Of a stretch of 64,000 nt of DNA, positions 37,193-55,600 are shown piece after piece. Source of the stretch: an uncultured Phycisphaeraceae bacterium (GTDB taxonomy: Bacteria; Planctomycetota; B15-G4; JADJEK01); assembly GCA_964649825.1 (NCBI GenBank), contig CAZYQW010000029.1:69735-133734 (forward strand), given 5' to 3'. Numbering within the stretch: position 1 is the stretch's first letter; every line of letters starts with the position of its first letter. A program made the position numbers and the translations under genes. The notes beneath the pieces are model-generated. The model was not told the origin of the DNA. It was given only the letters and a program-made list of their open reading frames with translations, and searched no databases.

Positions 37193-38341
37193 ATGATTCA
37201 GCGATCCGGGCCGCTCACTCCCGGTCGGAAGCAAGGCGTGTCCACCGTCCTGGGGAGCGGGCTGATCAGTGCCCTGGGGGTCGTCTCCGTCGCCCTGCTG
37301 ACGGGGGACGCGACGGCGGTGACGCTGCTCGGCGTCTTGGGCGCCCTCGGCGTTGCGCACCTCTGGACCGCACGGAGGCCTCCCCGCCCGCGCCCGGACG
37401 ACGTCGAAACGACCAGCCGGTTTCACGACGACTACCTGCGGCTTGCCGGGCAGTTCGAAGAGGCGCTCGCCGACTACCAGCGCCAGGTCACGTCCGCCGA
37501 GCGGCAGCGCGAGGAGCTGAACACCTGCGTGCGCCGGCGAACCGCCGACCTGATCCGAACGAACCGGCGCCTCGAACGCCTCGATCGGGTCCGCGATGAG
37601 TTCCTCTCCTTGCTCGCGCACGAGCTGCGCACGCCGTTGACGTCGATCCGCTCGTACCTCGAGGTCGCGATCAACCAGACCTCGATCCCGCACGATCGCC
37701 AACAGGACCTGCTGCGCAACTGCCGGCGGCTCGTCCAGAGGCTCGCCAAGCTCATCAACGACCTGATCCACGTCAGCCAGCTCCGTGCTGGCCGATACGA
37801 GTTCCGCATCGTCGCCGTCAACCCCCGCGACGTCCTCGACGAAGTGATCGAGGCGCAGCGGACCTCGATCCAGTCGCGAGGTTTGCGCCTCTGCGTCGCG
37901 CTGCAGGAGAACACCGGCGCGGTCTCGACCGATCGCGACGCGTTCAGCCGGATCCTCGAGGGGGTCGTCACGAACGCGATCCAGCACGGTCCCGACGGCT
38001 CGGAGATCACGATCGAAGCGGCACGGGTCGGAGAGCACGTCGAGATCGCCGTCGAGGACCAGGGATCGGGGGTGTCGCCCGAGGACCACGAGATGATCTT
38101 CGAGCCGTTCTTCAAGACTCGCTCGGTGGGGCAGTCGACGCGCGAAGGGACCGGGCTCGGCCTCTTCCTCTGCCGCGAACTCGCGCAACGCATGGAAGCC
38201 GACCTGCGCCTCGACGCCGCGTCGAAGGGGGGAGCCCGCTTCATCGTCTCGCTGCCGTGCGCGCGGCGCTCCGGCGAGCCGAAGACGCCGCCGGCGACCG
38301 AACGAGGCGTCCCGACCTACCCCAGCTCCACGCGCGGGTAG
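37193..38341 (+). CDS. Sensor histidine kinase (two TM helices, HisKA and HATPase_c). No cognate response regulator is adjacent.
   Basis: The H-box is LAHELRTPLTSI and the G-box is GTGLGLFLCRELAQRM. The N-terminus has 2 TM segments. Confidence 0.85.
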   Translation: MIQRSGPLTPGRKQGVSTVLGSGLISALGVVSVALLTGDATAVTLLGVLGALGVAHLWTARRPPRPRPDDVETTSRFHDDYLRLAGQFEEALADYQRQVTSAERQREELNTCVRRRTADLIRTNRRLERLDRVRDEFLSLLAHELRTPLTSIRSYLEVAINQTSIPHDRQQDLLRNCRRLVQRLAKLINDLIHVSQLRAGRYEFRIVAVNPRDVLDEVIEAQRTSIQSRGLRLCVALQENTGAVSTDRDAFSRILEGVVTNAIQHGPDGSEITIEAARVGEHVEIAVEDQGSGVSPEDHEMIFEPFFKTRSVGQSTREGTGLGLFLCRELAQRMEADLRLDAASKGGARFIVSLPCARRSGEPKTPPATERGVPTYPSSTRG

Positions 38342-40020
38342 GCACGCCACGCGCGCCGCAGCAGGTCCGCGCCCAACAGCGCCGCCGCGTCGTCGGGCAT
38401 GGCGTCGAGGATCGCCTCGCTCATCAGGATGACGAGCTTGCGGCGCGCCCGCGTCAGGCTCACGTTCAGCCGGTTCGGCGAGAAGAAGAAGCTCGCCTCC
38501 GAGAGAACCGCCTGCGGATCGCTCGCCGTCAACGACAGCACGATCAGGTCGCGCTCGCCGCCCTGCAGCCGCTCGACCGTGTCGACGACCGGAAAGCGCT
38601 CCGGTGGTAGATCGAGGCGACGCCGCAGAAGCGCGCGAATCCGATTCCCCTGCGCGCGATGCGGAGCGATGACGGCGACCTCGTCGGGCGAAAGCCCATG
38701 TCCGATCGCGGCCGCCACGATGTCCGCCGCCGCCTCCGCCTCCGCCGGCGCCATCGTGCGCGCCCCGAGGTGCTTCACCGGCACGATCAGCCCCGGCGGG
38801 TCGGGACGCAGGATCGGCCCGGGATCGCCGTCGAGCGCGAGGCGGATGCCGCGGTTCGCGGCCGCCGCTCTCAGCCGCCCGCCGTAGAACGCGGCGCTCG
38901 GGAACGAGCAGAGCTCCTCGTTCATCCGGTACGTCGACGTCAGCAGGTGCGACCCGTAGCGCTCGTGCAGGTGCTCGAACGCCGACCGGAGCGCGAGCGA
39001 GTCCTCGTGCTCGGCCACGACGAGCGGTGGAAGCTGTCGATGGTCGCCCACCAGGAACCGGCGCCGACCGAGCGCCAGCGCGGCGCACGCGTGCGGCATC
39101 GCGACCTGTCCCGCCTCGTCGACGAGGACGAGGTCGAACCGCCGCCCGAGGAGCCGTACGGCCGCGTGCGTCGTTGCTCCGACCACGACGGGGCCGTTCA
39201 GCGCCCCCAGCCCGCGCGGCGTCGGAACCAGCTCGACGCCCTCCTCGTCCAGGCGATCGGCCTGCGACTCGGAGCCGATCTTGACGACGGCCAACTCCCG
39301 ATCGAGGCGCGCGACGGCGCGCAGGACGTTGTTGACGGCACGATGCGTGAACGCCGTCACCACCACCTGCTGGCCGTGGTCGAGGAAGGTCCGCACGAGC
39401 GCGGCGGACAACATCGTCTTCCCCGCCCCCGGCGGACCCTGCACGAGTGTGAACGGACGGCGACACCCATCGATGAACGCGGCGGTCTGCGACTCGTCGA
39501 GCCCATGGCGCGCCGCGTCCGACTCGTCTCCGATCGCCCGGACCGGCGTCCTCTCGGCGTCCCCGGTCAAGAGACGGCGAGTGTCCTCGAAGTCGCGGCT
39601 CGTGAAGACGGCGCGCACCGCGCCGATCAGCCGATCGGTCAGGTCGAGATCGCGCCGATCGAGCACGAGCTCGCCGGACGTATCGATCGGGGTGGGCGCC
39701 ACGAACCGGTCCACCTCGACTCGGATCGTCTCGCCGTTCGGATCGTGATCACGGAAGACGACCTGCATCCCCTCATCGATGCGCTCGCCGTTCGAGATCC
39801 AAAGAAGGTCGCCCGGCCGGAACCTCGACAGGTTCTCCGGACATCCGAGCAGGACGCTCCCGCCGTCGTCTCGGATCCACGAGAGGCCGCGCACGGCTTC
39901 GCCGGACTCGACGCGCTCCTCGAGCGACAGCGCGTGGACCTCGCGCATCGCCTGCGCGCTCGCGCGACGTTCCCGCTCGAGGATCGCGACGAGGCGTTCC
40001 GGAATCGAGCGTCCGTTCAT
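38317..40020 (-). CDS. Superfamily-1 DNA helicase (AAA_11/AAA_12, Dna2/Nam7-like).
   Basis: The internal start is MNGRSIPERL. Walker A is GPPGAGKT, with DEAGQ, GDHRQLPP and a C-terminal VSLTRAR. ATGA overlap with the upstream nuclease gene. The 3' end overlaps the convergent HK gene by 25 nt. Confidence 0.85.
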   Translation of the reverse strand: MNGRSIPERLVAILERERRASAQAMREVHALSLEERVESGEAVRGLSWIRDDGGSVLLGCPENLSRFRPGDLLWISNGERIDEGMQVVFRDHDPNGETIRVEVDRFVAPTPIDTSGELVLDRRDLDLTDRLIGAVRAVFTSRDFEDTRRLLTGDAERTPVRAIGDESDAARHGLDESQTAAFIDGCRRPFTLVQGPPGAGKTMLSAALVRTFLDHGQQVVVTAFTHRAVNNVLRAVARLDRELAVVKIGSESQADRLDEEGVELVPTPRGLGALNGPVVVGATTHAAVRLLGRRFDLVLVDEAGQVAMPHACAALALGRRRFLVGDHRQLPPLVVAEHEDSLALRSAFEHLHERYGSHLLTSTYRMNEELCSFPSAAFYGGRLRAAAANRGIRLALDGDPGPILRPDPPGLIVPVKHLGARTMAPAEAEAAADIVAAAIGHGLSPDEVAVIAPHRAQGNRIRALLRRRLDLPPERFPVVDTVERLQGGERDLIVLSLTASDPQAVLSEASFFFSPNRLNVSLTRARRKLVILMSEAILDAMPDDAAALLGADLLRRAWRAYPRVELG

Positions 40021-41393
40021 CGCGCTCCGGCCTCGCCGCGGCAGAGCTCGTCCCGCAGCCGCGCGATCGTGTCCAGCTCGTGGCGAAGCCGGCGATGGAC
40101 CGACTCGATGTCGGCTCCGGGTTCGCCTTCGAGGTAGCGGAGAGCATCGACGTCGGATGGATCGGCCTCGACCGGCGCGATCCCCGCCGCGCGCGCCGCG
40201 AGGGCGAGCGTGCGATCGAAACCGGGGAGCGCCACCGACCGGCGCAGCTCGGCGCGAAGATCGATCGCGCGGCGTCGAACGCGCTCCACCGCCGAGCCGA
40301 GCCACGGCAGCCGATCCACGATCCGCTCGAGCACGCGTGACAGCGCGGGTCCGAACGTCAGGATCGGACCACGGGAGCGGTCCAGGTTGACGACGAAGGC
40401 ACGAAACTCGGCGAGCGGGTCGATCGCCTCCGGCCGCCGCAGGAACCGCACGAGGAACTTCTCGCGGTCGTCGAGCACGAGCCCGGCGACGGCGATCTCG
40501 GCCGGATCGAGACGCTCGTTGATCAGCGCCACGAGCGCGATCTGCGCCGCCGCGACCTCGTCCCGCGGCGCAACGACGCGCAGCGGCGCGCCGTCGCGGG
40601 CGGCGCGGGCTCGACGCGACACGCGACGCACGAGATCGCTCGGCAACCCGGACGCCCGCGCGGTCGGACCGGGCCGCTCGAGATCCGCGAGGGCGCCGAT
40701 CGACGACACGCCGGCGGCCCGAAGCGCCCCTGCCTGCGCGCGCGTCAACCCCGGCAGGCCCGCGACGTCGTCCTCGACCTCGAGATCCGCCGCGCAGAGA
40801 TCGCGGTAGCGACAGTCGAGGCACGCCTCCGTTCGGTGCGGACCGGGGTCTTCACCGCGACGGGAGTCGTCGATTCGCGCGAGCAGGTGGTCGAGCGTCG
40901 CATCCAGCTCGCCGAGCTCGAAGGGAATCCTCGTTCCGTCGCGGACGATGACGTAGCCGCGGCGCGGCGCCGCGCCGAGCTCGCCGAGCATGCGCGAGTA
41001 GAACGCGACCTGCAGACGAGCCGACGCGTGGACCTTCTGCGAGCTCTTCACGTCGGCGACCTCGTAGACGCCGTCCGAGTTTCTGAGCAGGAGGTCGGGG
41101 CGGCCAAGGCGTTCCGGCGTGATGAGCACGCCGTTCGCGATCGCGCTCGCGCCCTCGTCCATCAGCGCGCACGTCGCCTCGAACCCAGTCTGGAAGTCGC
41201 CGCGCTCGAACTCGACATCGACCGGCGCGATGTCCTCGAGGATGCGCGCCTCGACCCGACGGCCGGTACGGAACAGCACCTCCATGCGTGGTGTCGGGGG
41301 CAGCTCGACCTCCTTCGGGCGATGGAAGGAAAGGTACGGAATCCTCGCGCAGGTGAGGTACTCCTTGACTCGGGTGCCATCGACGGGACGCAT
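40017..41393 (-). CDS. RecB-like PD-(D/E)XK nuclease (TM0106-type) partnered with the SF1 helicase.
   Basis: YLTCARIPYLSF and DGVYEVADVKSS (D...E-x-K) are present. A C-terminal Cys cluster reads CLDCRYRDLC. It is translationally coupled to the helicase. Confidence 0.7.
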   Translation of the reverse strand: MRPVDGTRVKEYLTCARIPYLSFHRPKEVELPPTPRMEVLFRTGRRVEARILEDIAPVDVEFERGDFQTGFEATCALMDEGASAIANGVLITPERLGRPDLLLRNSDGVYEVADVKSSQKVHASARLQVAFYSRMLGELGAAPRRGYVIVRDGTRIPFELGELDATLDHLLARIDDSRRGEDPGPHRTEACLDCRYRDLCAADLEVEDDVAGLPGLTRAQAGALRAAGVSSIGALADLERPGPTARASGLPSDLVRRVSRRARAARDGAPLRVVAPRDEVAAAQIALVALINERLDPAEIAVAGLVLDDREKFLVRFLRRPEAIDPLAEFRAFVVNLDRSRGPILTFGPALSRVLERIVDRLPWLGSAVERVRRRAIDLRAELRRSVALPGFDRTLALAARAAGIAPVEADPSDVDALRYLEGEPGADIESVHRRLRHELDTIARLRDELCRGEAGAR

Positions 41394-41899: not shown

Positions 41900-42872
41900 C
41901 GGCGGGCATGGCGGGTCGCGGGTGCGGCTCGTGATCGAACCACGAACGCCGTGGGATCGACTCCGGACGACGAGCGCGCGACCCGGATCGGGCTCCACGT
42001 CCTCGGTCCAGACGATCGTATCCTTTCGGCAGAGGCGGGCCTCGCGGGTGACACCGGGAAGGTGAACGCGGCGTCGAGCCCGTTTCTCGAGCGGTTCGCG
42101 GAGAACGAACGTCCCGGTCGCGCGATCGAGGACGAACTCGGCATCCAGGGCCCGGGGACGTGATGCGCATCGGCGCGCCGGGATCCACAACCAGACGACG
42201 GCGTCCGTGGTCGTGCTCGGATGGACCTCGACCTCCTCCAAAGCGGTGACGAAACCCTCTGCCCGTACTTCGACGCGAACGATCCCGGTCGGGACTCGTG
42301 GCGGTCACGGAAAGTCGGAGTTCACGTGTGAGTCCACGCGTTCCGCGCGTTCGGCCCGAGGATCCTTCGCGGGCGCGGGCGGCGACACGGGAGAGCCGCG
42401 GAACGCGCGCACGATCAGCACCACGACGAGGGCGGCGAGTGAGATCCAGACGAAGCGGCGAAGGAGCGTCTTCATGGGCGTTCCACGCCGAGTCTACTGG
42501 TGTTCGGTGACGGGGCATCAATCACGGGACTTCAGAACCTCCACGATGTCGATCCGGCCGAGCCGGCGCCAAGCGCTGGCTGGCTTGGCGCGGCTCATCC
42601 CGCGTCCAGGCGGGATTACCCGAGAGGGTCGGACTGGTCGTCGAGCTGACGAGATCAAAGAACCCGTGCTCCAGGGTGCGCAGCCGTCTCTTCCCCGCCG
42701 CCAGAGCCCGACTTGCCGACGCGCCCCTTCTTGCGAACGCGGTCGGACCCGTCGGCAGGGATCCGGTCAACGGACCCAATTGAATCCGGGGGCCGCTCGC
42801 CATTAGGATGCCCTGGCTTGAATACCATGGGGGCCGCGATCGCCGCTCCCAACGCCCCGTTGGGGGAAGAAC

Positions 42873-43235
42873 ATGAAGGGCGACGCCATGCTGGGACTCG
42901 AGCTTCGAGAGGAATTCCGCGGCAAGCGGCTGAAGGGCACGCAGATCGAACTGCCGGACGCAGTCAACCTGGCGGCCGCCGACTTCCTGCGGATCACGTA
43001 CCCGAGTGGGGACGTGCTTTCCGCCGTCGAGCCCATCGGGCCGGAGCAGGGACATCCTGTGGTCCTCATCGGCGAGCCCGGCCAGGGCAAGTCGCACTTG
43101 ATGGCGGCCCTCGTCCACGCCCTGAACGACCCGACCACAACTCCGTCATCGTCTCCGTCATCGCCGCCTCTGCAGATGTCCCCATGTCGCGGTGCGTCAG
43201 CTTTGCTCTATTGTGAGTCCGGACTTGATGTGTGA
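42873..43235 (+). pseudogene. A 5' fragment of a P-loop ATPase gene, truncated after Walker A.
   Basis: GGGGGA lies 6 nt before the ATG. After GHPVVLIGEPGQGKSHLMAALVHAL the frame degenerates into a low-complexity TTTPSSSPSSPP tail and a stop inside the 19-bp tandem repeat. The length is 120 aa where about 400 or more would be expected. Confidence 0.45.
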
Positions 43236-43249
43236 GTCCGGGCTTGATG
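43212..43249. repeat. Tandem 19-bp direct repeat (TGTGAGTCCGG[A/G]CTTGATG, two copies) at the pseudogene/sce7726 junction.
   Basis: The two adjacent copies differ at one position. The repeat overlaps the stop of the truncated ATPase and the 5' leader of the sce7726-like gene. Confidence 0.7.
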
Positions 43250-43297
43250 CGCGTCTCGAGGCCGCACCGGCAACCGCCCGGCGTCGTGGAGGCAACC

Positions 43298-43891
43298 ATG
43301 AGGAGCAGTGACCTGGTCCTGCGGGACGCTGATATCCGACCGGCACTGCGCTTGAAGCTGGTCGGCAAGCACGCTGACGAAGCCAACACGGTCATTATCG
43401 AGGAGTTGGGCGTCTGCCGTGGACGCGTTCGAGTTGACCTGGCGGTCGTCAACGGCACGCTCCACGGCTACGAGATCAAGTCGGACCGGGACAGCCTGCG
43501 GCGTCTGACCACGCAGATCGACTTCTACGGGAGGGTCCTCGATCGAGCGACGCTCGTGGTCGGCGAGCGTCACCTGCCCAGTGCGCTCGGCGTCCTTCCG
43601 GCGTGGTGGGGTGTCCTTCACGTCCAGCAGGCGCCCCGCAGGCAGCGCTTCAAGACCATCCGCCGCGGGCGGAAGAACCCCCAGAGAGATCCTCGCGCGC
43701 TCGTGGAGCTGCTCTGGCTGGATGACGCGCTCGCCCTTCTGGAGACACGCGAGGTTGCGAAGGGCGTCAGGGGCAGGCCGCGGCGGCTCGTATGGGATCG
43801 GGTGTGTGAGCACTTCAGCGTCGACGAGATCGCAGCAGCCGTCCGAGCACAACTCAAGGCCAGGGCAGCGTCGCAAGTCCCTCCTGAATGA
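43298..43891 (+). CDS. sce7726-like PD-(D/E)XK-fold protein.
   Basis: GGAGG lies 7 nt before the ATG at 43298. RVDLAVVNGTLHGYEIKSDRD is a canonical D...(D/E)xK nuclease core. The 197-aa protein is convergent with the sce7725-like gene and overlaps it by 38 nt. Confidence 0.7.
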   Translation: MRSSDLVLRDADIRPALRLKLVGKHADEANTVIIEELGVCRGRVRVDLAVVNGTLHGYEIKSDRDSLRRLTTQIDFYGRVLDRATLVVGERHLPSALGVLPAWWGVLHVQQAPRRQRFKTIRRGRKNPQRDPRALVELLWLDDALALLETREVAKGVRGRPRRLVWDRVCEHFSVDEIAAAVRAQLKARAASQVPPE

Positions 43892-44921
43892 CGAGCGAGA
43901 TGTGGTGAATGGTCCCGAGGCGGCGCCAGGCCTCGGCAGATCCGAAGCCACCGGCCCGGTCAGCAGCGGCCTTCATCGACTTGCAGCCTTCACAATGCGC
44001 CGGACCAAAGAAGCTGGATCGCAGATGTCCATACACGAGCTTGGTCGCAAGTGCGGGAAACTGCACCCCCGGCCGCGTGACGCGGGTGCTCTCCCCCTTG
44101 ATGAGGAGCCAATCATCCGGCATTGCGTACCGGATCGAAGCCGACATCTGCATGATCCGAGGGTCAAAGCCCTCGACACCCGTGGGGTACTGAATAGCGC
44201 AGTCGCTGAAGGTGGGGAGCCGCGCAAGGCGACCCCGTGCTTTATGGAGGCGGTCGCGCCAGGCGATCCACTCCACTCGCTCGACAAGGTTGTCAGAGTT
44301 GCGGGCAACGCCGCCCCTCATGGGGAAGGCGCACGCGGAGATGGTGAAGGTCCGCCACCGCCGGTGATCAGGAACGTCGGATAGGAACGCTGCCGTCAAG
44401 GCGGCAACGCCGTCCACGATCATCTCGTCGACCGCACCCAAGTCGACGATCAAATCCGTTCCTTCCGGCGCGAGCCCGTGTTTCGCCATGAACGCTTGGA
44501 GGCTCCCGGTGAGGTTCCCGCTCTCGAACTCCTCGCGGGTGAGCCTCAGCGCGATCCCATGACGTTGATGCGCAAGGGCTGCGGCCAGGTCGGCGGTCCG
44601 CGAAATCCCGGTGACCGGCGTGAAGACGATGCCGGCCGAGTTCGCCCGTCGGAAGACCTCGAGGGCGGCCGCCGGACCGTCAGAGGCGATCTCGCGGGCA
44701 TCGAGGAAGCACCTCGCATAGGAGATGACGCTGCCCGCGAGACCCTTGAATGCGTTGTCGAGGTGGGCAGCGACCGTCGCGGCCTTGTCGGCCTTTCGTT
44801 CGACGACTTCCAAGAGGGGCGTGATGCGCGCCCGAAGGGGTTGCAGGACCGAGCCGAGAGCACTCTTCTCGCCGCGTTTCACCTTCAGCACCGGAACGTA
44901 GTGGTGGTCGCCGAAGGTCAT
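43854..44921 (-). CDS. sce7725-like protein (355 aa), partner of the sce7726-like gene.
   Basis: GGAGG lies 8 nt before the ATG. MTFGDHHYVPVLKVKRGEKSALGS...CEGCKSMKAAADRAGGFGS. It overlaps the PIN gene stop by 4 nt. Confidence 0.65.
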   Translation of the reverse strand: MTFGDHHYVPVLKVKRGEKSALGSVLQPLRARITPLLEVVERKADKAATVAAHLDNAFKGLAGSVISYARCFLDAREIASDGPAAALEVFRRANSAGIVFTPVTGISRTADLAAALAHQRHGIALRLTREEFESGNLTGSLQAFMAKHGLAPEGTDLIVDLGAVDEMIVDGVAALTAAFLSDVPDHRRWRTFTISACAFPMRGGVARNSDNLVERVEWIAWRDRLHKARGRLARLPTFSDCAIQYPTGVEGFDPRIMQMSASIRYAMPDDWLLIKGESTRVTRPGVQFPALATKLVYGHLRSSFFGPAHCEGCKSMKAAADRAGGFGSAEAWRRLGTIHHISLVIQEGLATLPWP

Positions 44922-45529
44922 GGGGCACCTCCGGTTCGAGGATCCCAGAGGACAAGCGGAGCCAGCTCAGCGGCGAGGCTCTCGTAGTACGAGATGAGTG
45001 CTTCGCGGGGAGCCGCGTTCCCTATCGAGAAGCAGCCCTGGATCATCTTGTCCGCTGCGGCGACTGGCGCGAGACGCTCCCGAACTGCATCCGCTCCGAG
45101 TTGATCGCAGAGGGCGAGAAGTATGGCCTCCAGCACTACGATTCGACCCGAGAGCGCAGAGGGGAATCCTTCGACGTCCTTGAGAGCGCGCAGTGCCCGC
45201 TTGTCGCCGGACACCACGAGCAGGTTCGCCTCGGCCGCCGCGGCGAAGAGCTGGGCCTCACCGACGTCGATCCCCTCGACAGGGATCAGGAGGTCGAGCC
45301 AGGTATCGCTGGGCTTGGGCATGACGGGAATGGATTCCGCGACCGGGATCAAGGCGTCGCAGACGTCCCCACCGAGCTGCTTCCGGAGCCTGCCCCTGCG
45401 CAGCATGTGCGGGAGGGCCGCCAGCCTGCCGCAATCGCCAAGGCCCGCCGCGAGCAGGCCAGCCGCGTCGCTGAGCAGCCCCGCGGCCTGCAGCTTGCAG
45501 AAGACATCCGTGTCAACCAGCAGCTTCAT
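44918..45529 (-). CDS. PIN-domain (DUF4411-like) putative ribonuclease.
   Basis: The internal start is MKLLVDTDVFCK (first PIN Asp). EAQLFAAAAE and LLVVSGDKRAL supply the further acidic residues. The ATG is embedded in the last 17 nt of the upstream ImmA-like gene. Confidence 0.65.
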   Translation of the reverse strand: MKLLVDTDVFCKLQAAGLLSDAAGLLAAGLGDCGRLAALPHMLRRGRLRKQLGGDVCDALIPVAESIPVMPKPSDTWLDLLIPVEGIDVGEAQLFAAAAEANLLVVSGDKRALRALKDVEGFPSALSGRIVVLEAILLALCDQLGADAVRERLAPVAAADKMIQGCFSIGNAAPREALISYYESLAAELAPLVLWDPRTGGAP

Positions 45530-46496
45530 CGCGTTCCGGGTCGCCGTAGACGCAGCGGAGCAGAGCGCGGTCACTCTCGGTCGCGGCATCCAGGTCAACG
45601 TAGCGGTCGAAAAGCTGGCGCAGCTGCTTGCGAGCACCCGCCCCCCGGTACAGAGCCTTCACCGCCATCGTCGCCTTCGCATAGTCCCCGGTGCGTCGAG
45701 CCCACGCGAAGATTACGGCGCTCGCGTCGGCGCCTGTTGTGCGCTCGATCTCCGCAGCCAAGCGTGCGAGCTCCTTGAAGCTGCGCCCGTCGACTTGTGG
45801 AACCGAGTCGCCGCCGACGACGACACGGGTGGCGAACTGGTCAGCGCGGATCTCGATGTCCGCATCGTCCGCGATCTCCTCCTCCTCGTCCACAACAGGC
45901 TGGCCTGGGGCGCAGTCGCCGGCAGCGACGTGGCCTGCTTCGTGGGCGGCGAGAAACGCGACACGCCCGGGTTCGTCATGCTTGTGGGCGAGCAGGATGA
46001 CTGGTCTGCCCTCGACGACGCAGGCAATGCCCTGGAAGCTTGGTGCTGGAAGCACCTCGAGGGGGACAACGGGCACACCCCTCATCCACAGGTCGGAGAC
46101 GATCTCGGTCAGCGTCAGCGCCATACCGGCACGATCGATCTCGTCGCGCCAGGCGAGGCCGTCGTCGGGAGGCACCGCGACTTGAGGCTTCGAGTCGCGA
46201 AGGCAGCGAACGACGGCGGCTGCGATTCTGGTTGCCGAGTGGATCGCTGGTCCAAGTCGGTCGCGGTCTACATCTCGGACGCGTCTGAGCTGCGCCTGGG
46301 GGTACTCGGGCGCGGCTATCGCTGCGCCGGGATCAGCAACCGCCGCCAGCGGTAGCCCAAGGAAGCGCGCGACACGAATCTCGACGTCTTGGAGGAGGCG
46401 AGGATCGTCAGCGCAGCTGTCATCCCACCATTCGGGCAGGATAGCCGGGCACACGAAGTCCTTCTTGAACCCCGCGCGGGACAAACGGCGCATCAA
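45513..46496 (-). CDS. ImmA/IrrE-family zinc metallopeptidase domain protein.
   Basis: LAAHEAGHVAAGD contains an HExxH zinc site. GC3 is visibly lower than in core genes. An AT-richer promoter-like region lies at 46497-46640. Confidence 0.7.
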   Translation of the reverse strand: MMRRLSRAGFKKDFVCPAILPEWWDDSCADDPRLLQDVEIRVARFLGLPLAAVADPGAAIAAPEYPQAQLRRVRDVDRDRLGPAIHSATRIAAAVVRCLRDSKPQVAVPPDDGLAWRDEIDRAGMALTLTEIVSDLWMRGVPVVPLEVLPAPSFQGIACVVEGRPVILLAHKHDEPGRVAFLAAHEAGHVAAGDCAPGQPVVDEEEEIADDADIEIRADQFATRVVVGGDSVPQVDGRSFKELARLAAEIERTTGADASAVIFAWARRTGDYAKATMAVKALYRGAGARKQLRQLFDRYVDLDAATESDRALLRCVYGDPERDEAAG

Positions 46497-46789
46497 GGTC
46501 GTGTACGTGTGCTTCGCCAGCGGACTGCTCCATTCGTTGTGTGCTCTCAGGTGTCAACGTATGCAAGTTTCATTCCGCGTAGCGATCGAGCGGCGCGGGG
46601 AGGATAGGAACTCCAAACTACCGCTGCACACGGTCGGCGTCGAGTTGACGGATCACACGTGTCGTCGAAAGGTCTCGTGCCGTTCGTCCCCACTCATCCG
46701 TTCGACGGATCGGGTCGAGGCGACGGCTGGGTTCGCGTTTCCGTCGTCGGGGTCGGTGTCGTCGGGTCCGACCGCGTCCAGCGTCGCCT

Positions 46790-47130
46790 CGATGAGGCTC
46801 GCGCGCGCGGCGTCCAGCTCGTAGGCCGCGACCTGGACCGCGAACTGGGCGGCCCGTCTCCCCTGGCGGGCGCTTTCCTCGTCGCGCATCGCGAGGACGA
46901 GCCGGTTCTTCCCCCTCGATCCCCTCCGCGGCGAGCTCGCGGACGCGATCGGGCAGAGTTTCCGCGTAGCGGAGGTCGGCTTCCGCTTGTTTCTCGCGGG
47001 CCTTCGCTTCGTGGAGCGACGCCTCCGCGCGCGCGTCCGCGCCTCGGCCTCGGCCCGGGTCCGCGCGTCGAGGAGCTCCTGCGGCTTCTCGCCGTCGTTG
47101 ACGAGGACGAGACGAGCCGCCGTGGACCGA
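46790..47130 (-). pseudogene. Degraded remnant of an HlyD-family membrane fusion protein gene (frameshifted).
   Basis: Two adjacent minus-strand frames each give coiled-coil MFP-like text (EASLHEAKAREKQAEADLRYAETLPDRVRELAAEGI and FAVQVAAYELDAARASLIEATLDA), but no single frame is intact. Confidence 0.3.
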
Positions 47131-47203
47131 ACGAGCGACCCGCTCCCCAGGTCGCGTCGTCGAGGGGTTCGCAGTCGCCGCGGGATCGAACCGCCTCCGA
47201 TCG

Positions 47204-48562
47204 CTATCGATCCGGTCGGGACGAGCTGCCCCACTCCACGCGCCGGTCGAACACCAGCGTGCGATCGAGCTTCGCGTCGAACGACTCGATCACTGCTCGG
47301 AAGCTGGGTCGAGGACGGCCGCGGAACACCTCGTCGCCGTTCGCGCGCACGACGACGTCGAGCGACGGGTCGAACGTTCCCGGTCGCAGCCAGACGCTGA
47401 AGCTCTTCGGATCGGCACGCGCGATCGTCAGATCGAACTCGTTCCCGTCCCGCACGGCGACGACGCGCATCGCGTCCGTCGGGACATCGCAGTGGAGCCA
47501 GTAGAAGTCATGCTTCTGGTAGCGCGTCACCTTGTCCGCCGCGGTCGGCAGGGGAAACGGTTCGGTCGCGTACTCCCACACCAGCTTGGTGGGGAACGCG
47601 TTGCGCTTCCTCTGACCGATCCATTCGATCCCCTTCGTCGGTTCCCCCGGCGGGAAGGCGTGGGCGAGCCCGGGATAGGTCGCGAACTCGATCTCGACGT
47701 AGCCGCCGGGGTCCGCCTGCCGCAGCTCCTCGATCCGATCCCAGACGTAGAGGTACGTACCCGGCATGCAGTTCCGGTCGGCGAGACCGATGTAGTAGTA
47801 CATGGCGAGGTTGCGCACGTTGGGCACGAACCCGTGCTGCACCGACTTCACCTCTTCTTTGGTCGCGAGCTGGCTCTGCGGCTCGGCCATCACCACGCCG
47901 GCGCACGGAGACGCACCCGCGAGGAGGTCCGGGTGGCGCCCCGCCATGAACCAGGATCCGGTCCCGCCCATGCTGAACCCCATCGAGTAGACGCGGTCCG
48001 GGTCGATCTCCTGCTGCACCTTGGCAAGCTCGATCAACGAGAGGAGGAAACGCTCGCCGTGCACGGTGTTCCACGTATCGTGGACGAGCCGGATCCCCTG
48101 CGGATAGACGCCGACGCAGTTCTTCGCGTGCCAGCGCGTCGCCTCCGAAGCCGAACCGGCGCCCTCGCCGCCGCCGTGGAGGCCGAGCACGAGCCCTTTC
48201 CCCTTGCCCTTGCCCGACGCGATCCACGTCGCCTCGCCGTATGGAGTGTCGATCGCGTCGCCCTTCACCTTCGGGCCGTACCGCTTCGCCGCCTTGAAGA
48301 GCATCTCGACCACGGCGTCGAGCGAACCGTCCGGCAGCTCCCCCATCTGCGCGGCCTCCTCGAGCAGACGCTCGCGAGCCCCGTCCGCCCACGCCTCGAA
48401 GTAGTTCTTCGGACGCGCCTCGAACCAGCGCTTCCCGAACGACTCGATGGCTCGCTTGTCGAGCTTCTCGGCGCTCCGCGCAAGCGCAGCCGGTGCAAAC
48501 GGGGCGAGGATCACGACGAAGACGGTGAGCGGCCAAGCGGAGCGTCGGAGGGTGCTTCTCAT
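47204..48562 (-). CDS. Secreted alpha/beta-hydrolase (esterase/peptidase-like).
   Basis: The internal start MRSTLRRSAWPLTVFVVILAPFAPAALA is a signal peptide. GFSMGG is a GxSxG nucleophile elbow. The protein is 453 aa. Confidence 0.7.
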   Translation of the reverse strand: MRSTLRRSAWPLTVFVVILAPFAPAALARSAEKLDKRAIESFGKRWFEARPKNYFEAWADGARERLLEEAAQMGELPDGSLDAVVEMLFKAAKRYGPKVKGDAIDTPYGEATWIASGKGKGKGLVLGLHGGGEGAGSASEATRWHAKNCVGVYPQGIRLVHDTWNTVHGERFLLSLIELAKVQQEIDPDRVYSMGFSMGGTGSWFMAGRHPDLLAGASPCAGVVMAEPQSQLATKEEVKSVQHGFVPNVRNLAMYYYIGLADRNCMPGTYLYVWDRIEELRQADPGGYVEIEFATYPGLAHAFPPGEPTKGIEWIGQRKRNAFPTKLVWEYATEPFPLPTAADKVTRYQKHDFYWLHCDVPTDAMRVVAVRDGNEFDLTIARADPKSFSVWLRPGTFDPSLDVVVRANGDEVFRGRPRPSFRAVIESFDAKLDRTLVFDRRVEWGSSSRPDR

Positions 48563-50097: not shown

Positions 50098-50880
50098 TCA
50101 ATCACTCGGCAACAGTCGCAGCATCCGCTGCTCCACCAACACCCGGAAGTGACTCGCCATGCTCAAGGCGAGCGGGCGGTCGCGGACCAGCACCCCCACC
50201 TCGATGTTCCGATCGAACGCGGCCTCGGTGAGGTTCGCAGAGGTCACGAAGACTGCCTCGTCGTCGGCCACGACCGCCTTGGCGTGGAGGACGCCGGAGG
50301 GGCGCTCGGGGTCGAGGGCGCGCGGGTCGTAGAAGACCGTGGGCCGCGCCTGGCCGGGCCAATCCTCCTTCCAGAGACGATCGGCGAAGCTCCGCACGAG
50401 CTGGTCGGCGGGCGCGGGATCGCCGCGCTTGCGCTGGATGTTCAGCAGGAGGGTCACGCGGAGGCCGGGGCACGCGTCCATGCGGCGGGCGAGGAGTTGG
50501 AAGGCCCGGGGGCCGTCGAAGTAGGCGTACGTGCTGATCCAAAGCGACCGGGTGGCCCCCGCGAGGAGCTGGTCGAACGCGTCGCGGGTCCGGCGGACGT
50601 GGAGGCCGGGGACCTCGGGGCCGGACCAGACCAGGTCCGGCCGGATCTGCTTCGCGGTGACCGCTTCCACGGTCCGGAGCCAGGCGGCAGCGCCGCGCCC
50701 GGACACGCCGATGCGATCCAGGTCGCGAAGGCCGGTGGCGATCGCCTCGATGCCGTCCTCCAGGCCCACGGTGGCGCGCAGCGACGCGGCGGCGTAGGGC
50801 GGACCCAAGAGCCCGCTGTCGAGGGCCGCGGCGAGGCGCTGGCGCTGGTGGGATGGCAGGTCGAGGAGGGGCTCGATCAT
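50098..50880 (-). CDS. drmC: Phospholipase-D-family nuclease, DISARM DrmC-like.
   Basis: The HKD motif is HAKAVVADDEAVFVTSANLT. The 260-aa protein overlaps the drmB stop by 4 nt. Confidence 0.8.
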   Translation of the reverse strand: MIEPLLDLPSHQRQRLAAALDSGLLGPPYAAASLRATVGLEDGIEAIATGLRDLDRIGVSGRGAAAWLRTVEAVTAKQIRPDLVWSGPEVPGLHVRRTRDAFDQLLAGATRSLWISTYAYFDGPRAFQLLARRMDACPGLRVTLLLNIQRKRGDPAPADQLVRSFADRLWKEDWPGQARPTVFYDPRALDPERPSGVLHAKAVVADDEAVFVTSANLTEAAFDRNIEVGVLVRDRPLALSMASHFRVLVEQRMLRLLPSD

Positions 50881-52679
50881 TCCACGAGCCGGAAGAAGGC
50901 CGCGTCGGGCTCACCGAGAACAGGCACGACGAGGGCGCGGTCGAGGTAGTCGTTGCGCATCTCGCATGAGGTCTCGGCGACCAGGGTGCAGCCGTGGCAA
51001 GCGGCGCCGTGCAGGAAGCGCTTCTCCAGGCTCGAGGCCGGGGAGTGCTGGGCGCACACCGGGTCGTTGGAGCAGAGCGCCGCCATGCGGAGCGCGTTCG
51101 CGAGGTGATCTTCGATGTGGCGGCCCTGCTGGACGAGTCCGCCGAGCGTCCCCTCCGCGTCGGGGGTACCGGTGTACAGGAGCACGCCGTAGCGCTCACC
51201 GTCGGGGTCGGAGTACACACGCTCGCGGATGGAGCTCGCCGGGTAGCCACAGCGCATCGCGAGCGACTGGATGAGGAGATGGGACAGGGTGTGGAGGAGG
51301 ACGTAGGGCCCCCCGGGAAACGACCGCTTGCCCCGGCCTCTCCCATCGTCCTGCCACCGCTTGTACCCCGCGGCCAGGTCGTCGACGCGGGCCTTCACAA
51401 CGGGCCGCGCGAGCCACGCCGCGATCATCTCGGCGCGCAGATGAAGAAACACACCCTCCCCGCGGTTCTCGACCGCCGGGAACCAGGTGGGCTCCTCGTC
51501 GAGCTCGGCCCGCACGACGTCGGTGTCGTACTCGCCGTTGATGTCGGGCGTGACGGCCTCGAACCGCGTGAATCCAACCAGGGCGAGGACCTCGCGGAGG
51601 CGGTGGAGCTGGACGACGCTCTGGACGCCCGCGAAGCGATCCGACTTGTGCCAGACCGATTCGGGCAGCCGGCGGGCGTGGAAGTTGAGGTCGATGGGGA
51701 CGTCATCCCCGAAGCCCTCGAGCGCGGTGAGCAGCGCGTCCAACTCCACCTGCTTGACCGGCCGTTCCTCTACCACTCCCGCCTTCATCTCGCTGATGAT
51801 CTGCAGGACCTCGCGATCTCCGTATGGCGCGAGCTTCTCGGCGACGCGGGGCTTCCTCTTCACGGTCGCCAGGTCGCCCGCGTCCTCGACGATCTGCAGG
51901 TCGTCCCAGAGCTCGGTGAACACGGCGCGCGCCTTCGCGCCCTGGTCCGGCAGCGACAGCACGCTCACGACCTGGGGGAAGTATGCGTTGGCGGCGGTCC
52001 GGATGAGAAGCCGGCTCGGCAGGGAGCACTCCTCGCTCGCACCGCGCCCCAGCCACGGCATCGCCCCGCTGCATGTCCCCAGCGCTTCGCTCTCGGAGGC
52101 CTCGTAGAGGCTTCGCGGCGCCACCTCTTTGCACTCGCAGCGGATCGAGAGGTCCGCGAGATCGCCGGTCGTCCCCGTCTCGTCGAGCCAGAGCTGCAGG
52201 CGACATGTCGAGTCGGGTCCGTGAAGGAAGCGGTGCCATTGGATGTCATCGACGTGGCCACGCGGGCACGCGCGGACGAACCGCGTGGCCACGACCCGGA
52301 GATTCTCGAATCGCCCGTGGTCGAGCAGCTTGCGATGGACGAGCCGCCGCGACCGCGCGCTCCGGTCGCCCTCCGGCGGGGGCTCCTGGACCACGTACCA
52401 TTCGGGGAAGCGATACGCGCTGATGCCTCTTCGCCGGTGATCCGACCAGTCGTCCGATTCGATCGGCGGCGCGAACATTCGCGGATCGTCCACGTCCGTC
52501 ATCATCTGGAGCTTGCGCTCGAGCCGGGGCTCGACGACGGGCTCGAGTTCGCTGGTCGGCCCCCACGTCCGGAGACCGCCGAGGATCGCGGAGTCCTTCG
52601 GCAAATCGATCAACGCCCCAGGCCCGTAGGTCAGGATCACCTGGCTGCGCCGGAGCTGTCCGTGCGCTTTTCGTCTCAT
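50877..52679 (-). CDS. drmB: DUF1998-domain protein, DISARM DrmB-like.
   Basis: The 600-aa protein carries the C-terminal Cys motif typical of DUF1998/MrfB (SNDPVCAQH...HGAACHGCTLVAETSCEMRN). It overlaps the drmA stop by 4 nt. Confidence 0.8.
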   Translation of the reverse strand: MRRKAHGQLRRSQVILTYGPGALIDLPKDSAILGGLRTWGPTSELEPVVEPRLERKLQMMTDVDDPRMFAPPIESDDWSDHRRRGISAYRFPEWYVVQEPPPEGDRSARSRRLVHRKLLDHGRFENLRVVATRFVRACPRGHVDDIQWHRFLHGPDSTCRLQLWLDETGTTGDLADLSIRCECKEVAPRSLYEASESEALGTCSGAMPWLGRGASEECSLPSRLLIRTAANAYFPQVVSVLSLPDQGAKARAVFTELWDDLQIVEDAGDLATVKRKPRVAEKLAPYGDREVLQIISEMKAGVVEERPVKQVELDALLTALEGFGDDVPIDLNFHARRLPESVWHKSDRFAGVQSVVQLHRLREVLALVGFTRFEAVTPDINGEYDTDVVRAELDEEPTWFPAVENRGEGVFLHLRAEMIAAWLARPVVKARVDDLAAGYKRWQDDGRGRGKRSFPGGPYVLLHTLSHLLIQSLAMRCGYPASSIRERVYSDPDGERYGVLLYTGTPDAEGTLGGLVQQGRHIEDHLANALRMAALCSNDPVCAQHSPASSLEKRFLHGAACHGCTLVAETSCEMRNDYLDRALVVPVLGEPDAAFFRLVE

Positions 52680-55600
52680 GCCGAGTCTCCCGCCTCCGCC
52701 CCGTTGAGCTCCCTCAGGAACAGGTTCACCTCGGGCTCTACGTCGCGAAGCGACCGGTTCGCGCGGAACTTCCGGTGGTCCTCGGACTTGTCGGTGTCCA
52801 GCATTTCCCGAAGCAGAGGCCGCGGCCCGCGCACTTCGTACTTCTGGTACTGCATCCGGGCACCGACCTCACGCGACTCCGCTACAACTCGCGCCCAGGA
52901 ATCGAGGAGGTCCGTGACGCGCTGTTGTACGCTCAGCGCCCGCTCCGCCCGCTCCTGCTCGTCCATGCGCGGCTGCCCGGCGACACGGCGCAGGAAGGTG
53001 TCTCGCAACTCCGACTCGAGCCCGGCGCGGACATCGTCGATCCCTCCGACCGCTTCGGCGGGCGTCAGCTCCCGGCGCGCGTGGCGGGCGAGCGCCACCA
53101 ACGCCCCGGCGAAGCCCCGATCGAGGGCCCGCGCCGAGAACGGGGTGACGCTGGCCGGCTCCACCGCGCGATAGAACGTCTCGTGGTAGTGTCGAAAGCG
53201 CTCGTAGTGCGACCGGTCGCGCGGCTTGTGCATGTTGAGCAGCGTCACCACGAGGCCTGGCCGCTGGTCGTCGCGACCGACGCGGCTGGTCGCCTGGATG
53301 TACTCCGCGTGCGTCTTGGGCTGGCCGAGCACGACCATCAGCCCCAGCCGGGGGATGTCGAGGCCGACCGAGATCATGTTCGTGGCGATCGCGAAGTCGA
53401 CCCGCCGCTCTTCGTGGAACTCGCAGCTCAGGCGCTGCTTCGCTTCGGAGACCCCGCTGGTGGGGACGCGCGAGGTCAACTCCATGACCTCGGAGACTCG
53501 CTTGCGATCCTGGAATAGCCCTCGGTCCTCCCCCGCGCGCCGGCGGTTGCCGTAGCCCTTCAGGGTGTTCTGGACCTCCTCCTCGAGGATGCGGCGGCAG
53601 CCGCCGAGCTCGCGTAGGCTGTTGAAGTACCCGAGCACCGTCATGTACGGATCGGCGGGGTTCTTCTCGTTGCGGTGGCCGCCCGCGTCGCGGTACGCCC
53701 GCTCCGCCGCACCCATCAGGGCCAGCCAAACGCGGCGGAGGATCACCTTCGGATTGCGACCCTGCGAGGCCACGCCGAGGTACAGGCGGGCGGCTTTCCG
53801 CTCGACGCCCACCTCCGCCGCCGCCTGCGCGTCGGATGGGACGACCCGAGCGAAGAACGAGTCCCTTCGGTCGGGCCCGGGTGGCGGGAAGACCATGGTC
53901 TGGGGACGCCCGAAGACGGCCTGGATCTGCTCTGCGGCCTGGCGGACGGTGGCCGTCGACGCCACGATCTTCGGCTTGATCGCCTTGCCATCGACCTCGC
54001 GCACGATGAGGGCCTCGATCACCGTCTCGTACAGGCCGGCCATCGTGCCGAGCGGCCCCGAGATGAGGTGCAGCTCGTCCTGGATGATCAGGTCGGGCGG
54101 CGGCAGCGGGGCAGGGAGCCTGGAACCCTGGCCGGGCTCGGCATTGCCGTAGAAGCCGTGCTTGTCGTGCCGCTCGGCACCGCCGAGAAGCGCACCCGAC
54201 GGGCCGACCCAGGGCAGCGACGCGAACTTGTCCACGGTGGCGATGAGGAATGCCGGCAGCCGCCGGTAGATCGGCTCATCGACGGCGAGGATGGGGAGCG
54301 GGCGCTCGCGGGAGAAGTCGCATTCGAAGTTGACGCACACGATGCGCAGCTCGCGCGGCCGGTCGGCGTCCGGCTGCAAGTCGAACGAGTCCGGCTCGAA
54401 CCTGGTGCCGCACCACGGGCAGGTCTCGATGGGGATCGGGGACGGGTTCGCGTGCGGGTCGCGCTTGTAGTCGCGCACCTTGATCCGGGCGGTGTCCGAG
54501 ACCTTGTCGCCCTTGTGACCCATCCGGTTGGGCGTCGCCGCCTTGCCCACCCACAGCCCGATCTCGAAGGGCCACGTCCCGTAGCGCCCGGGATCCGCGC
54601 TCCGCTCGAGTTCCAGCGCGCACACCAGCCCCGCAGCCCGGCCGAGCTGATCGAGCGTGAGGAGGCGGAGGGTGTAGCGCATGAGGACGCTCACGCCCGC
54701 GCTCTGGAGCCCCGCGTTCCGCAGCCGGCGCAGGACCATCGTGTAGGCGGCGAGTCCGAGGTACGCCTCGGTCTTGCCGCCGCCGGTCGGGAAGAACAGC
54801 AGGTCGACCGTGTCGCGGTGTTTGCTCGGGTCGGTCGGATCCGCGATGCCGGACACGTTGAGGAGCACGAAGGCGAGCTGGAACGCGCGCCAGGCGGGTG
54901 CGTCGTCCCGCGACCGCCGCTGGAGAGCGCGGGCCACGGCGCGGTTCGCGACCCGAAACGCGTCCAAGGCGCTCGGGTCGGCGCGCAGGGTCTCGATGCC
55001 CTGGTCGATGCGGTCGGCGGCGGCGCGCGCGAGAACGAGGAGCCCCTCCACGGTCTCTCGCCGGGAATCGCCGAGCCTCCCCAGCACGCCCCGCTGCGCC
55101 GCGATCCAGGCGCGGTAGTGCACCACCAGCGGCCGAAGCGCCTGCGCTGCCGCCTCACCGTCGGCCAGGGCCCCGAGCTCGAGCATCCCGAGCGTCGCCC
55201 CTTCGATCTTCGATGTCTCGGTCCGCTCCACCTCGGCGTTCGGCACCCATGCGGTGCGCAGCTCGCGGCAGCGGCCATCCACCACCGACCACTCCGCGGA
55301 CACGCCGTGCCCCGCCGCGTACTCCGGCGCGTCGGCGTAGTGGACGTCGGCGACGCGCTCGTCCCAGTCGCGCGCCCGCGAGCCACGCGGATCCGGCCGG
55401 GGCACGAACGACTCCTCGCAGCGAACCCTGAGGCTCGCCTGGAACGCGTAGGCGCGGTCGGGGTTGTCGGTGTCGGGCGCGCGCCGGTTGATCAGGAAGA
55501 CCGAGATCGAGCGCGTTCCCGGGGGAATCTCGTTCGCGAACTCCCGCGCGTCGACGGCGCGATCGACGACGTGGAGCTGGAGGCCGCCGGAGCTCGGGAC

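Follow-up and report, generated by a model that had tools for sequence, protein, structure and literature searches.

The closest described relatives of the locus reported here are PD-lambda-2 and the gop-beta-cII system of satellite phage P4, both validated by experiment as anti-phage systems but mechanistically obscure. PD-lambda-2 (Vassallo et al. 2022) is an abortive-infection system of E. coli, whose operon encodes a Beta protein (PF14350) along with an M78 peptidase protein and a small, ‘toxin-like’ protein of ribonuclease type. Defence depends on Beta, and the peptidase protein is toxic when overexpressed, an effect neutralised by the small HigB-like, RNase-type protein (PMC9519451). The gop-beta-cII system (Ghisotti 1990; Rousset et al. 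2022) protects against phages lambda and P1, and Gop is toxic without Beta (PMC9122126), the toxicity being triggered by a phage accessory gene (bioRxiv 10.1101/2023.04.06.535777). In a 64,000-nucleotide (nt) stretch of DNA from an uncultured Phycisphaeraceae bacterium (assembly GCA_964649825.1, contig CAZYQW010000029.1, positions 69,735 to 133,734; hereafter the window, whose coordinates are used throughout), we found a four-gene cassette encoding a predicted zinc metallopeptidase, a PIN-fold nuclease-like protein, a Beta protein and a convergent protein related to P4 cII. Judged by its sequences, the cassette is an undescribed relative of both systems, and it lies outside each as currently defined (components A and B of PD-lambda-2 and Gop of P4 are not recognised in it). 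An initial annotation made from the letters alone had described the peptidase and PIN genes as a module co-transcribed with a ‘sce7725-like’ gene; it missed the four-gene unit, with its convergent cII/sce7726-like gene, and the kinship to PD-lambda-2 and gop-beta-cII.

A third body of work is also relevant. Comparative genomics has led to the prediction that COG2856 peptidases, together with the PIN or RelE toxins found linked to them, make up multi-component toxin–antitoxin (TA) systems, in which an Xre repressor is the presumed substrate (PMC2701414, PMC5499597).

The first three genes of the cassette lie on the minus strand. The peptidase gene (45513..46520) encodes 335 amino acids (aa) from a CTG at 46520 or 326 aa from an ATG at 46493, and ends with a TGA at 45515-45513. 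It is followed by the PIN-like gene (44918..45529; 203 aa; ATG 45529-45527, TGA 44920-44918) and the Beta gene (43854..44921; 355 aa; ATG 44921-44919), while the cII-like gene (43298..43891, plus strand; 197 aa) converges on the Beta gene. Homologue lengths fix these boundaries, as the PIN-like protein is 203 aa long in most of its 120 best relatives, and the peptidase is 326 aa long in most relatives and 335 aa in a sizeable group. A 138-kb NCBI contig encodes identical PIN-like and Beta proteins, and its member of the peptidase cluster is only 203 aa long, so the peptidase seems to have been called from an internal start in the public annotation.

The genes are tightly packed. The peptidase and PIN-like genes overlap by 17 nt (45513..45529), read directly in the sequence as GCGATGAAGCTGCTGGTTGA, and the stop codon of the PIN-like gene overlaps the ATG of the Beta gene by 4 nt (ATGA, 44921-44918); both overlaps had been reported at first reading exactly as we find them. 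Among 61 related loci, 53 keep the 17-nt overlap and 32 the 4-nt one, a recurrence that argues against chance junctions, and the arrangement indicates that the peptidase, PIN-like and Beta genes are translationally coupled. At the other end of the Beta gene, the Beta and cII-like genes overlap by 38 nt at their 3′ ends (43854-43891, convergent strands), and a convergent overlap of 32–47 nt is present in 49 of 58 related loci; in phage P4, by contrast, a 28-nt gap with a terminator separates the 3′ ends of beta and cII. The convergent overlap may cause antisense or transcriptional interference between the two genes.

The first gene is, on sequence and model evidence, a zinc peptidase of the ImmA/IrrE/CapP type, which upholds the ImmA-like assignment made at the outset. 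Its HEAGH motif, encoded by AAHEAGHVAAGD on the minus strand, supplies the HExxH signature (H184, E185 and H188, numbered from the ATG), and a downstream glutamate, E214, lies within IE..AD.YA. All four residues are invariant in a 56-sequence alignment that keeps both the HExxH and the E..AD.YA motifs, and the HExxH-plus-Glu active site is retained in 84 of 88 relatives. The Pfam Peptidase_M78 model (PF06114) scored 18 bits (E = 2.6e-3) against a gathering cutoff of 22, and scored 29.6 bits with a distant full-length relative from Geminocystis. In the PADLOC library, the matches were CapP (1.8e-6), RmrA of RosmerTA and PD-Lambda-2_B (3.9e-4), all on residues ~130–235. A profile of the family found just CapP among the PDB sequences (7t5t, E = 6.5e-3), with HExxH and E..AD.FA aligned, and the AlphaFold2 model (predicted local distance difference test, pLDDT, 89.6) had CapP as its sole meaningful Foldseek match (probability 1.00, E = 4.9e-3, 156 columns). 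The first ~110 residues and the last ~90, which form five helices, matched nothing in these searches, and the protein has no helix-turn-helix (HTH) domain.

The second gene encodes a protein that none of the Pfam, NCBIfam and PADLOC libraries matched. It belongs to a sizeable family, with 440 homologues in a word-indexed search and 1,485 clusters at 50% identity in an exhaustive one (E ≤ 1e-3). Its AlphaFold model is confident (pLDDT 93.9, predicted TM-score 0.89), and a Foldseek search of the PDB returned archaeal PAE2754 and many VapC proteins (probability 0.99, E 0.04–0.1), with TM-scores of 0.54–0.64 normalised to the ~132-aa targets; PIN domains were the only structural matches. Residues D6, D8, D88 and D109 are invariant, and E91 and E134 are at least 90% conserved. 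In the model, D6 sits at the end of β1, E91 at the start of the helix before β3, D109 just after β3 and E134 just after β4. This is the arrangement of a PIN tetrad, and D6, E91, D109 and E134 are therefore the putative catalytic residues, with D8 and D88 as further candidates and with equivalence to the VapC residues inferred from topology. Of 77 sequences compared at seven sites, 63 share the commonest residue pattern, most of the others differing by Asp/Glu swaps or changes at R111, and the acidic tetrad is held in nearly all of the 77, distant plasmid members included.

The modelled fold and the tetrad thus indicate a PIN-fold protein of a family that has no Pfam, NCBIfam or PADLOC model. 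The proposed PIN identity stands on both counts, the residues whose loss in alignment would have spoken against it being retained. The more specific DUF4411 label does not stand: PF14367 was matched neither by the window protein (E ≤ 0.1) nor by any of 66 family members, comprising 53 searched at E ≤ 5 and 13 distant ones (10 + 3) at E ≤ 0.1. The Pfam PIN family PF01850 was touched weakly by just 4 of the 53 (best E 0.0058), and we rejected membership of DUF4411 or any Pfam PIN family, as hmmscan of the window protein and its 66 relatives gave nothing above threshold. One side observation concerns residues ~108–195 of the family profile (window 44945-45208), which gave a weak match to the NLRP1 CARD over its full length (E = 0.07); this match is probably due to chance, as the same residues form β3, β4 and helices of the modelled PIN fold.

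The third gene is a clear member of the Beta family, matching Pfam Beta_protein (E = 2.7e-50) and PADLOC PD-Lambda-2_C (1.1e-26 and 3.1e-26). It shares 21% identity with P4 Beta (BLASTP, E = 2e-6) and gave no match at E ≤ 0.1 to the PADLOC model of P4 ‘beta’, PDLC02985, to which P4 Beta itself scores 8e-188, nor to any NCBIfam family model at the same threshold. This is the gene first called ‘sce7725-like’; its convergent partner, by contrast, matches the NCBIfam family sce7726_fam (NF033832, 1e-48). This partner also matches PADLOC ‘cll’ (3e-31) and P4 cII (32% identity, E = 6e-18), and PF26915 (Phage_P4_cII) was matched on an identical Logan contig. Across 28 sequences of the cII family, P4 cII among them, residues E36, D47, E59, K61, D65, R69 and Q73 are invariant; the E..D..ExK motif that they contain suggests a PD-(D/E)xK nuclease. 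Searches of the cII-like protein against solved nucleases and Pfam nuclease families gave no sequence link, and candidate links of Beta and cII to solved structures (fragments of UDP-glucuronosyltransferase, RecA, DdrC and QatC) were discarded as noise.

With its components defined, the cassette can be set against PD-lambda-2. The two share an operon of an M78 peptidase, a small putative ribonuclease and a Beta protein, the last matching component C. In the cassette, however, the partner of the peptidase is a 203-aa PIN-fold protein and not a HigB/RelE fold, and no cassette protein matched PD-Lambda-2_A or HigB. The order also differs, in that the PIN-like gene lies 3′ of the peptidase gene whereas component A lies 5′ of B. 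The cassette peptidase lacks the Xre HTH and carries an unrelated N-terminal region of ~110 aa, so that the PD-Lambda-2_B model is matched over its catalytic core only (positions 246-346, E = 3.9e-4), compared with 2.4e-77 for a true B homologue. Finally, the convergent cII-like gene is a feature of the cassette and not of PD-lambda-2.

That gene is what the cassette shares with gop-beta-cII, together with the layout, X → beta ← cII, and a Beta protein of 355 aa in both. The slot of the single P4 gene gop (133 aa) is occupied in the cassette by two unrelated genes, those of the peptidase and the PIN-like protein. No cassette protein matched PADLOC ‘gop’, although the peptidase was not set against Gop directly, and we discarded the PIN-like protein as a relative of Gop, since its profile aligned to P4 Gop with an hhalign probability of just 0.07. 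The cassette Beta is divergent from that of P4, as described above, and the overlapping 3′ ends of Beta and cII replace the terminator-containing gap of the phage.

The predicted three-component TA systems (COG2856/DUF955 with an Xre HTH and a PIN-like protein; Makarova 2009; Matelska 2017: DUF4411, COG2405, PIN_14/20/26) resemble the cassette in pairing a co-transcribed M78 peptidase with a PIN-fold protein that has four conserved acidic residues, and the cassette is likewise mobile and patchily distributed. It differs in having no HTH component, fused or adjacent, in a PIN family that hmmscan does not place in DUF4411 or any other Pfam PIN family, in a peptidase about twice the length of the COG2856 core, and in the coupling of the pair to Beta/cII. 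The same peptidase fold and motifs occur in CapP/CapH, which regulates CBASS (a cyclic-oligonucleotide-based anti-phage signalling system), in IrrE/DdrO, in ImmA/ImmR and in RmrA of RosmerTA, CapP being the best match. These carry out signal-activated proteolysis in defence or stress switches, but they act on, or are fused to, an HTH repressor, and none is paired with a PIN-fold or Beta protein.

To place the cassette among its relatives, we drew on a scan of one genome per species with search patterns that lie within the first 46 codons of the PIN-like gene. It gave 78 loci, from metagenome-assembled genomes of Acidobacteriota, Nitrospira (Nitrospirota), Gemmatimonadota, Dehalococcoidia (Chloroflexota), Myxococcota, Pseudomonadota, Planctomycetota, Bacillota and others. 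The order peptidase → PIN → Beta ← cII was found in about 55–60 of the 78 by tblastn with the four window proteins. Nucleotide homology between loci starts near the start of cII (~43275-43390) and ends ~45–60 nt 5′ of ATG 46493 (~46540-46556), and the flanks are unrelated from genome to genome: the four genes are inherited together as a mobile unit. GC content at third codon positions is 0.75–0.79 in the four cassette genes versus 0.890 ± 0.023 (minimum 0.843) in 26 other genes of the window, more than four standard deviations lower, and just 2.3% of 3.2-kb windows have a GC content as low as that of the cassette. The cassette is compositionally foreign, which supports the atypical composition and recent acquisition first proposed for it.

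The cassette is also modular. The peptidase–PIN pair occurs without Beta/cII on the Geminocystis plasmid pGM03, on a Pseudomonas koreensis megaplasmid and in several metagenome contigs, bearing out its original description as a module. The partners in these stand-alone pairs are full-length homologues (hhalign probability 93–98% for the PIN-like protein and 99.6–99.9% for the peptidase). Only in the P. koreensis relative is the pair preceded by a small gene annotated as DNA-binding, which overlaps the start of the peptidase gene; its HTH matches are weak and sub-threshold. Four loci of Dehalococcoidia and Tectimicrobiota (L056, L061, L064 and L066) lack Beta/cII, and exactly these four carry E185Q in the peptidase (HQxxH). 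L061 and L066, for which the PIN alignment is full-length, keep D6, E91, D109 and E134. A C5 DNA methyltransferase-like open reading frame (ORF) lies near L061.

The other half of the cassette is found by itself as well. Rhodococcus plasmids carry Beta/cII alone, as does an E. coli plasmid that has phage-like genes; in P4 the pair follows Gop, and on the Sinorhizobium terangae plasmid pCB3126_2 (L093) it follows a small gene and an Xre-M78 gene. In the Sinorhizobium locus, a 132-aa protein matches PADLOC PDC-M63A (2e-6) and the neighbouring proteins match PD-Lambda-2_B (2.4e-77), PD-Lambda-2_C (1e-41) and, convergently, cII/sce7726 (3.4e-28). Because this locus combines components of both, PD-lambda-2-type and gop-beta-cII-type systems intergrade. 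Set against the PD-Lambda-2_B protein of this locus, the window peptidase gives an alignment of ~160 residues that extends past the HExxH motif (hhalign probability 93.5%, E = 2.3e-7). These distributions fit a Beta(/cII) core that stays constant while the modules upstream of it are exchanged.

In about ten loci (L069 and L071–L078 among them), a full-length peptidase gene is followed by a PIN-like gene cut after 24–98 codons, and in four of these the break falls at the same place, just after ALPHMLRRG (codon ~46–48). The count is biased by search patterns placed in the PIN N-terminus, and the recurrent breakpoint may in part be due to this bias. Unrelated genes lie 3′ of the truncated copies, among them AbiEi, a 2,179-aa DEAD/MZB helicase, YgjP-like, DUF3800 and DUF5131 genes.

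An alignment of the region upstream of the peptidase gene revealed that the nine codons 5′ of ATG 46493 are conserved as protein (consensus x-A/T-K/R-H-T-F-x-T/S-L). At the position of this ATG, just 33 of 84 loci have an ATG, and often there is no start codon at all. The codon 27 nt upstream is CTG in 33 of the 84, the window included, and ATG, GTG or TTG in 20; in several loci CTG is the sole candidate start, with no ATG, GTG or TTG nearby. A Shine–Dalgarno-like motif lies within 16 nt upstream of this codon in 58 of the 84 loci, those of the GGAG type usually ~7 nt before it, and in the window GGAG (46531-46528) is separated by a 7-nt spacer from CTG 46520-46518 (minus strand, 46518..46531). 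As the nine upstream codons are conserved and the ATG position is poorly kept, the peptidase probably starts at CTG 46520. CTG is a rare and weak initiator codon, so that initiation there would keep the coupled genes at a low level.

This bears on a promoter-like stretch containing TTGACA that had been placed at 46500-46640. The hexamer is present (46557-46552, minus strand; 20 nt upstream of the peptidase Shine–Dalgarno motif) and is partly kept, as ATGACA, in a few relatives, but a role as a promoter is unsupported. A promoter scan found no sigma-70-like site in 43000-47500, and there is no acceptable −10 element 16–18 nt 3′ of the hexamer. We rejected a sigma-70 promoter at 46500-46640; by the upstream alignment, part of this stretch is probably coding or Shine–Dalgarno sequence.

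What might the cassette do? The initial annotation proposed either a signal-activated toxin module or a regulator of the adjacent pair, and these are, in our analysis, still the two leading hypotheses. The reading that we prefer, with moderate confidence, is a defence or abortive-infection cassette, in which a signal-responsive peptidase gates the PIN nuclease upstream of the Beta/cII core. The peptidase, PIN-like and Beta proteins would be made from one transcript at low, coupled levels, as weak initiation at CTG and the overlaps of 17 and 4 nt imply. The peptidase protein would silence the PIN nuclease, whether through direct binding or through control of an inhibitory segment or partner. 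An infection cue would then switch the peptidase; by analogy with CapP, IrrE and ImmA this might be a signal from nucleic acid or DNA damage, and by analogy with gop-beta-cII a phage protein. Proteolysis would free a nuclease activity, that of the PIN RNase and perhaps also of the cII-like PD-(D/E)xK protein, in concert with Beta, and the infected cell would stop growing. With an HTH protein missing from the cassette, the protease would need a direct target among the system’s own components. Gene structure, folds, conserved catalytic residues, co-inheritance, modularity and foreign composition are what the sequences show; a role in defence, the direction of control, the cue and the substrates are inferences from them.

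This proposal is consistent with the gene order, peptidase first and PIN second in overlapping genes, as in antitoxin–toxin operons, and with the conserved active sites of the peptidase and the PIN-like protein, by which both enzymes look active. The rigid arrangement of the cassette across phyla, its kinship to the two validated systems, the published predictions on peptidase–toxin systems and its foreign composition also speak for it, as do transposase, integrase, restriction–modification, Iet, MADS or AbiE genes next to some loci; one distant cassette lies behind an Eco57I-like gene and a helicase gene. Several observations weigh against it. There is no identifiable cleavage substrate, and the HTH protein on which related peptidases act is missing from the cassette. 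In PD-lambda-2, toxicity comes from the peptidase protein and neutralisation from the small RNase-like one, so the roles could be reversed here. Both halves of the cassette occur alone and could be independent modules merely travelling together. The PIN fold is assigned from a predicted structure, and its Foldseek E-values are just 0.04–0.1. The PIN-like protein gave no tblastn match in phage or plasmid collections and has no relative in IMG/VR; a search of plasmids with the peptidase returned two distant relatives only. A viral structure library gave no meaningful match. Most loci, moreover, sit among ordinary metabolic genes and not in clear defence islands: the 137 nearest flanking proteins at 48 other loci are mostly metabolic, with a minority of integrases, transposases and defence proteins (IetA, type I and III restriction–modification, MADS, RmrA and BrxH-like).

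The occurrence of the peptidase–PIN pair by itself on plasmids and metagenome contigs would also be expected of a self-contained TA, or addiction, pair, in which the peptidase-fold protein is mainly a stoichiometric, binding antitoxin and Beta/cII is separate, merely sharing the transcript. Such a pair would stabilise the mobile cassette rather than sense phage. We regard this as possible but, in both respects, fairly improbable. Type II TA operons typically show this gene order and overlap, and the four loci with E185Q that lack Beta/cII, two of which keep the PIN tetrad, point to a non-catalytic binding role. The loci with a truncated PIN-like gene beside a full-length peptidase gene also speak for it, but their count is biased by search patterns in the first 46 PIN codons. 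Retention of HExxH and the glutamate in 84 of 88 peptidases instead argues that proteolysis matters, and the ATGA coupling to Beta and a four-gene order fixed across phyla argue for a joint function. Alternatively, the pair might be the regulator, or input, of Beta/cII, with the cII-like PD-(D/E)xK protein and Beta as the real effector that the peptidase activates or derepresses. The PIN-like protein would then process operon RNAs, including the convergent 3′ ends, or would neutralise the peptidase as the HigB-like protein does in PD-lambda-2, where a small RNase-like protein rescues the cell from a toxic peptidase. Beta/cII is the constant core, whether alone, behind Gop or behind a small gene and an Xre-M78 gene, its convergent overlap is conserved, and the E, D and ExK residues of the cII family are invariant. 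The nuclease assignment of cII, however, comes from the motif, with no PDB or Pfam sequence link; the PIN tetrad is conserved as strongly as expected of an effector; and the pair persists where Beta/cII is missing. We consider this regulator role, and either task for the PIN-like protein, decidedly unlikely.

M78 peptidases of the ImmA and IrrE type cleave repressors (PMC2701414), and the small HTH gene overlapping the peptidase start in the P. koreensis relative recalls such a partner, so the peptidase could belong to an ImmA/ImmR-like switch of an integrated mobile element, cleaving a repressor encoded elsewhere and thereby inducing the element. This we think very improbable, given that the window locus has no HTH gene, integrase, excisionase, tRNA or flanking repeat, that loci share no nucleotide homology past the exact limits of the four genes, and that the flanking genes differ in every genome. 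A more far-reaching reading can be put forward tentatively, although we think it somewhat improbable as a whole. Beta/cII would serve as a universal core into which input modules plug (Gop; a small gene with Xre-M78; an HTH-less M78 peptidase with a PIN-like protein), and the pair would be a new, widespread family of protease-gated nucleases (~1,500 clusters at 50% identity) without a DNA-binding repressor, in which the protease acts directly on the nuclease or on Beta/cII and dosage is set by the conserved CTG start.

The cassette links PD-lambda-2 and gop-beta-cII. Its combination of a PD-lambda-2-type Beta, a P4-type cII and a PD-lambda-2_B-related peptidase, together with the Sinorhizobium locus, suggests that the two are versions of one modular system with a Beta/cII core. 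The PIN-fold family is well conserved yet missed by current Pfam, NCBIfam and PADLOC models, which leaves the cassette invisible to defence-system finders, and the cassette is found in many uncultivated phyla of soil and groundwater. Nothing in it contradicts current expectations. The HTH-less peptidase–nuclease pair offers a tractable case in which to ask whether ImmA-type proteases can gate an effector directly.

We also examined the surroundings of the cassette in the window. Domain searches for an HTH partner found none in the four cassette proteins or in neighbouring ORFs, and the intergenic space is too small for a further gene, in agreement with the absence of an HTH partner noted at first reading. 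No tRNA genes, Rfam families or integrase were found nearby, and flanking direct or inverted repeats were rejected as element ends, being short and weak. The region 41900-42870 holds no convincing gene. Next to it, a 120-aa ORF (42873-43235, plus strand) covers just the N-terminus of a NACHT/AAA_16 STAND-type ATPase, with its Walker A motif, and ends 63 nt before the cII-like gene; it looks like the remnant of a gene truncated on arrival of the cassette. About 50 nt before the start codon of the cII-like gene, TGTGAGTCCGG(A/G)CTTGATG occurs twice in tandem (43211-43248, plus strand), with a third, weaker match at 42316-42350; the repeat may serve cII as an operator or promoter element, or may be a scar left by insertion. 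Further away, a superfamily 1 helicase ORF (AAA_11/AAA_12, Upf1/Dna2-like) partly overlaps a 458-aa ORF with a Cas4/PD-(D/E)xK domain (38317-41393, minus strand); lying 2–5 kb from the cassette, these may form a separate nuclease–helicase pair for defence or repair. On the other side, at 50098-56233 (minus strand), a 260-aa PLD-like (PLDc_2) gene lies directly 3′ of ORFs of 600 and 1,185 aa, with overlaps of 4 nt.

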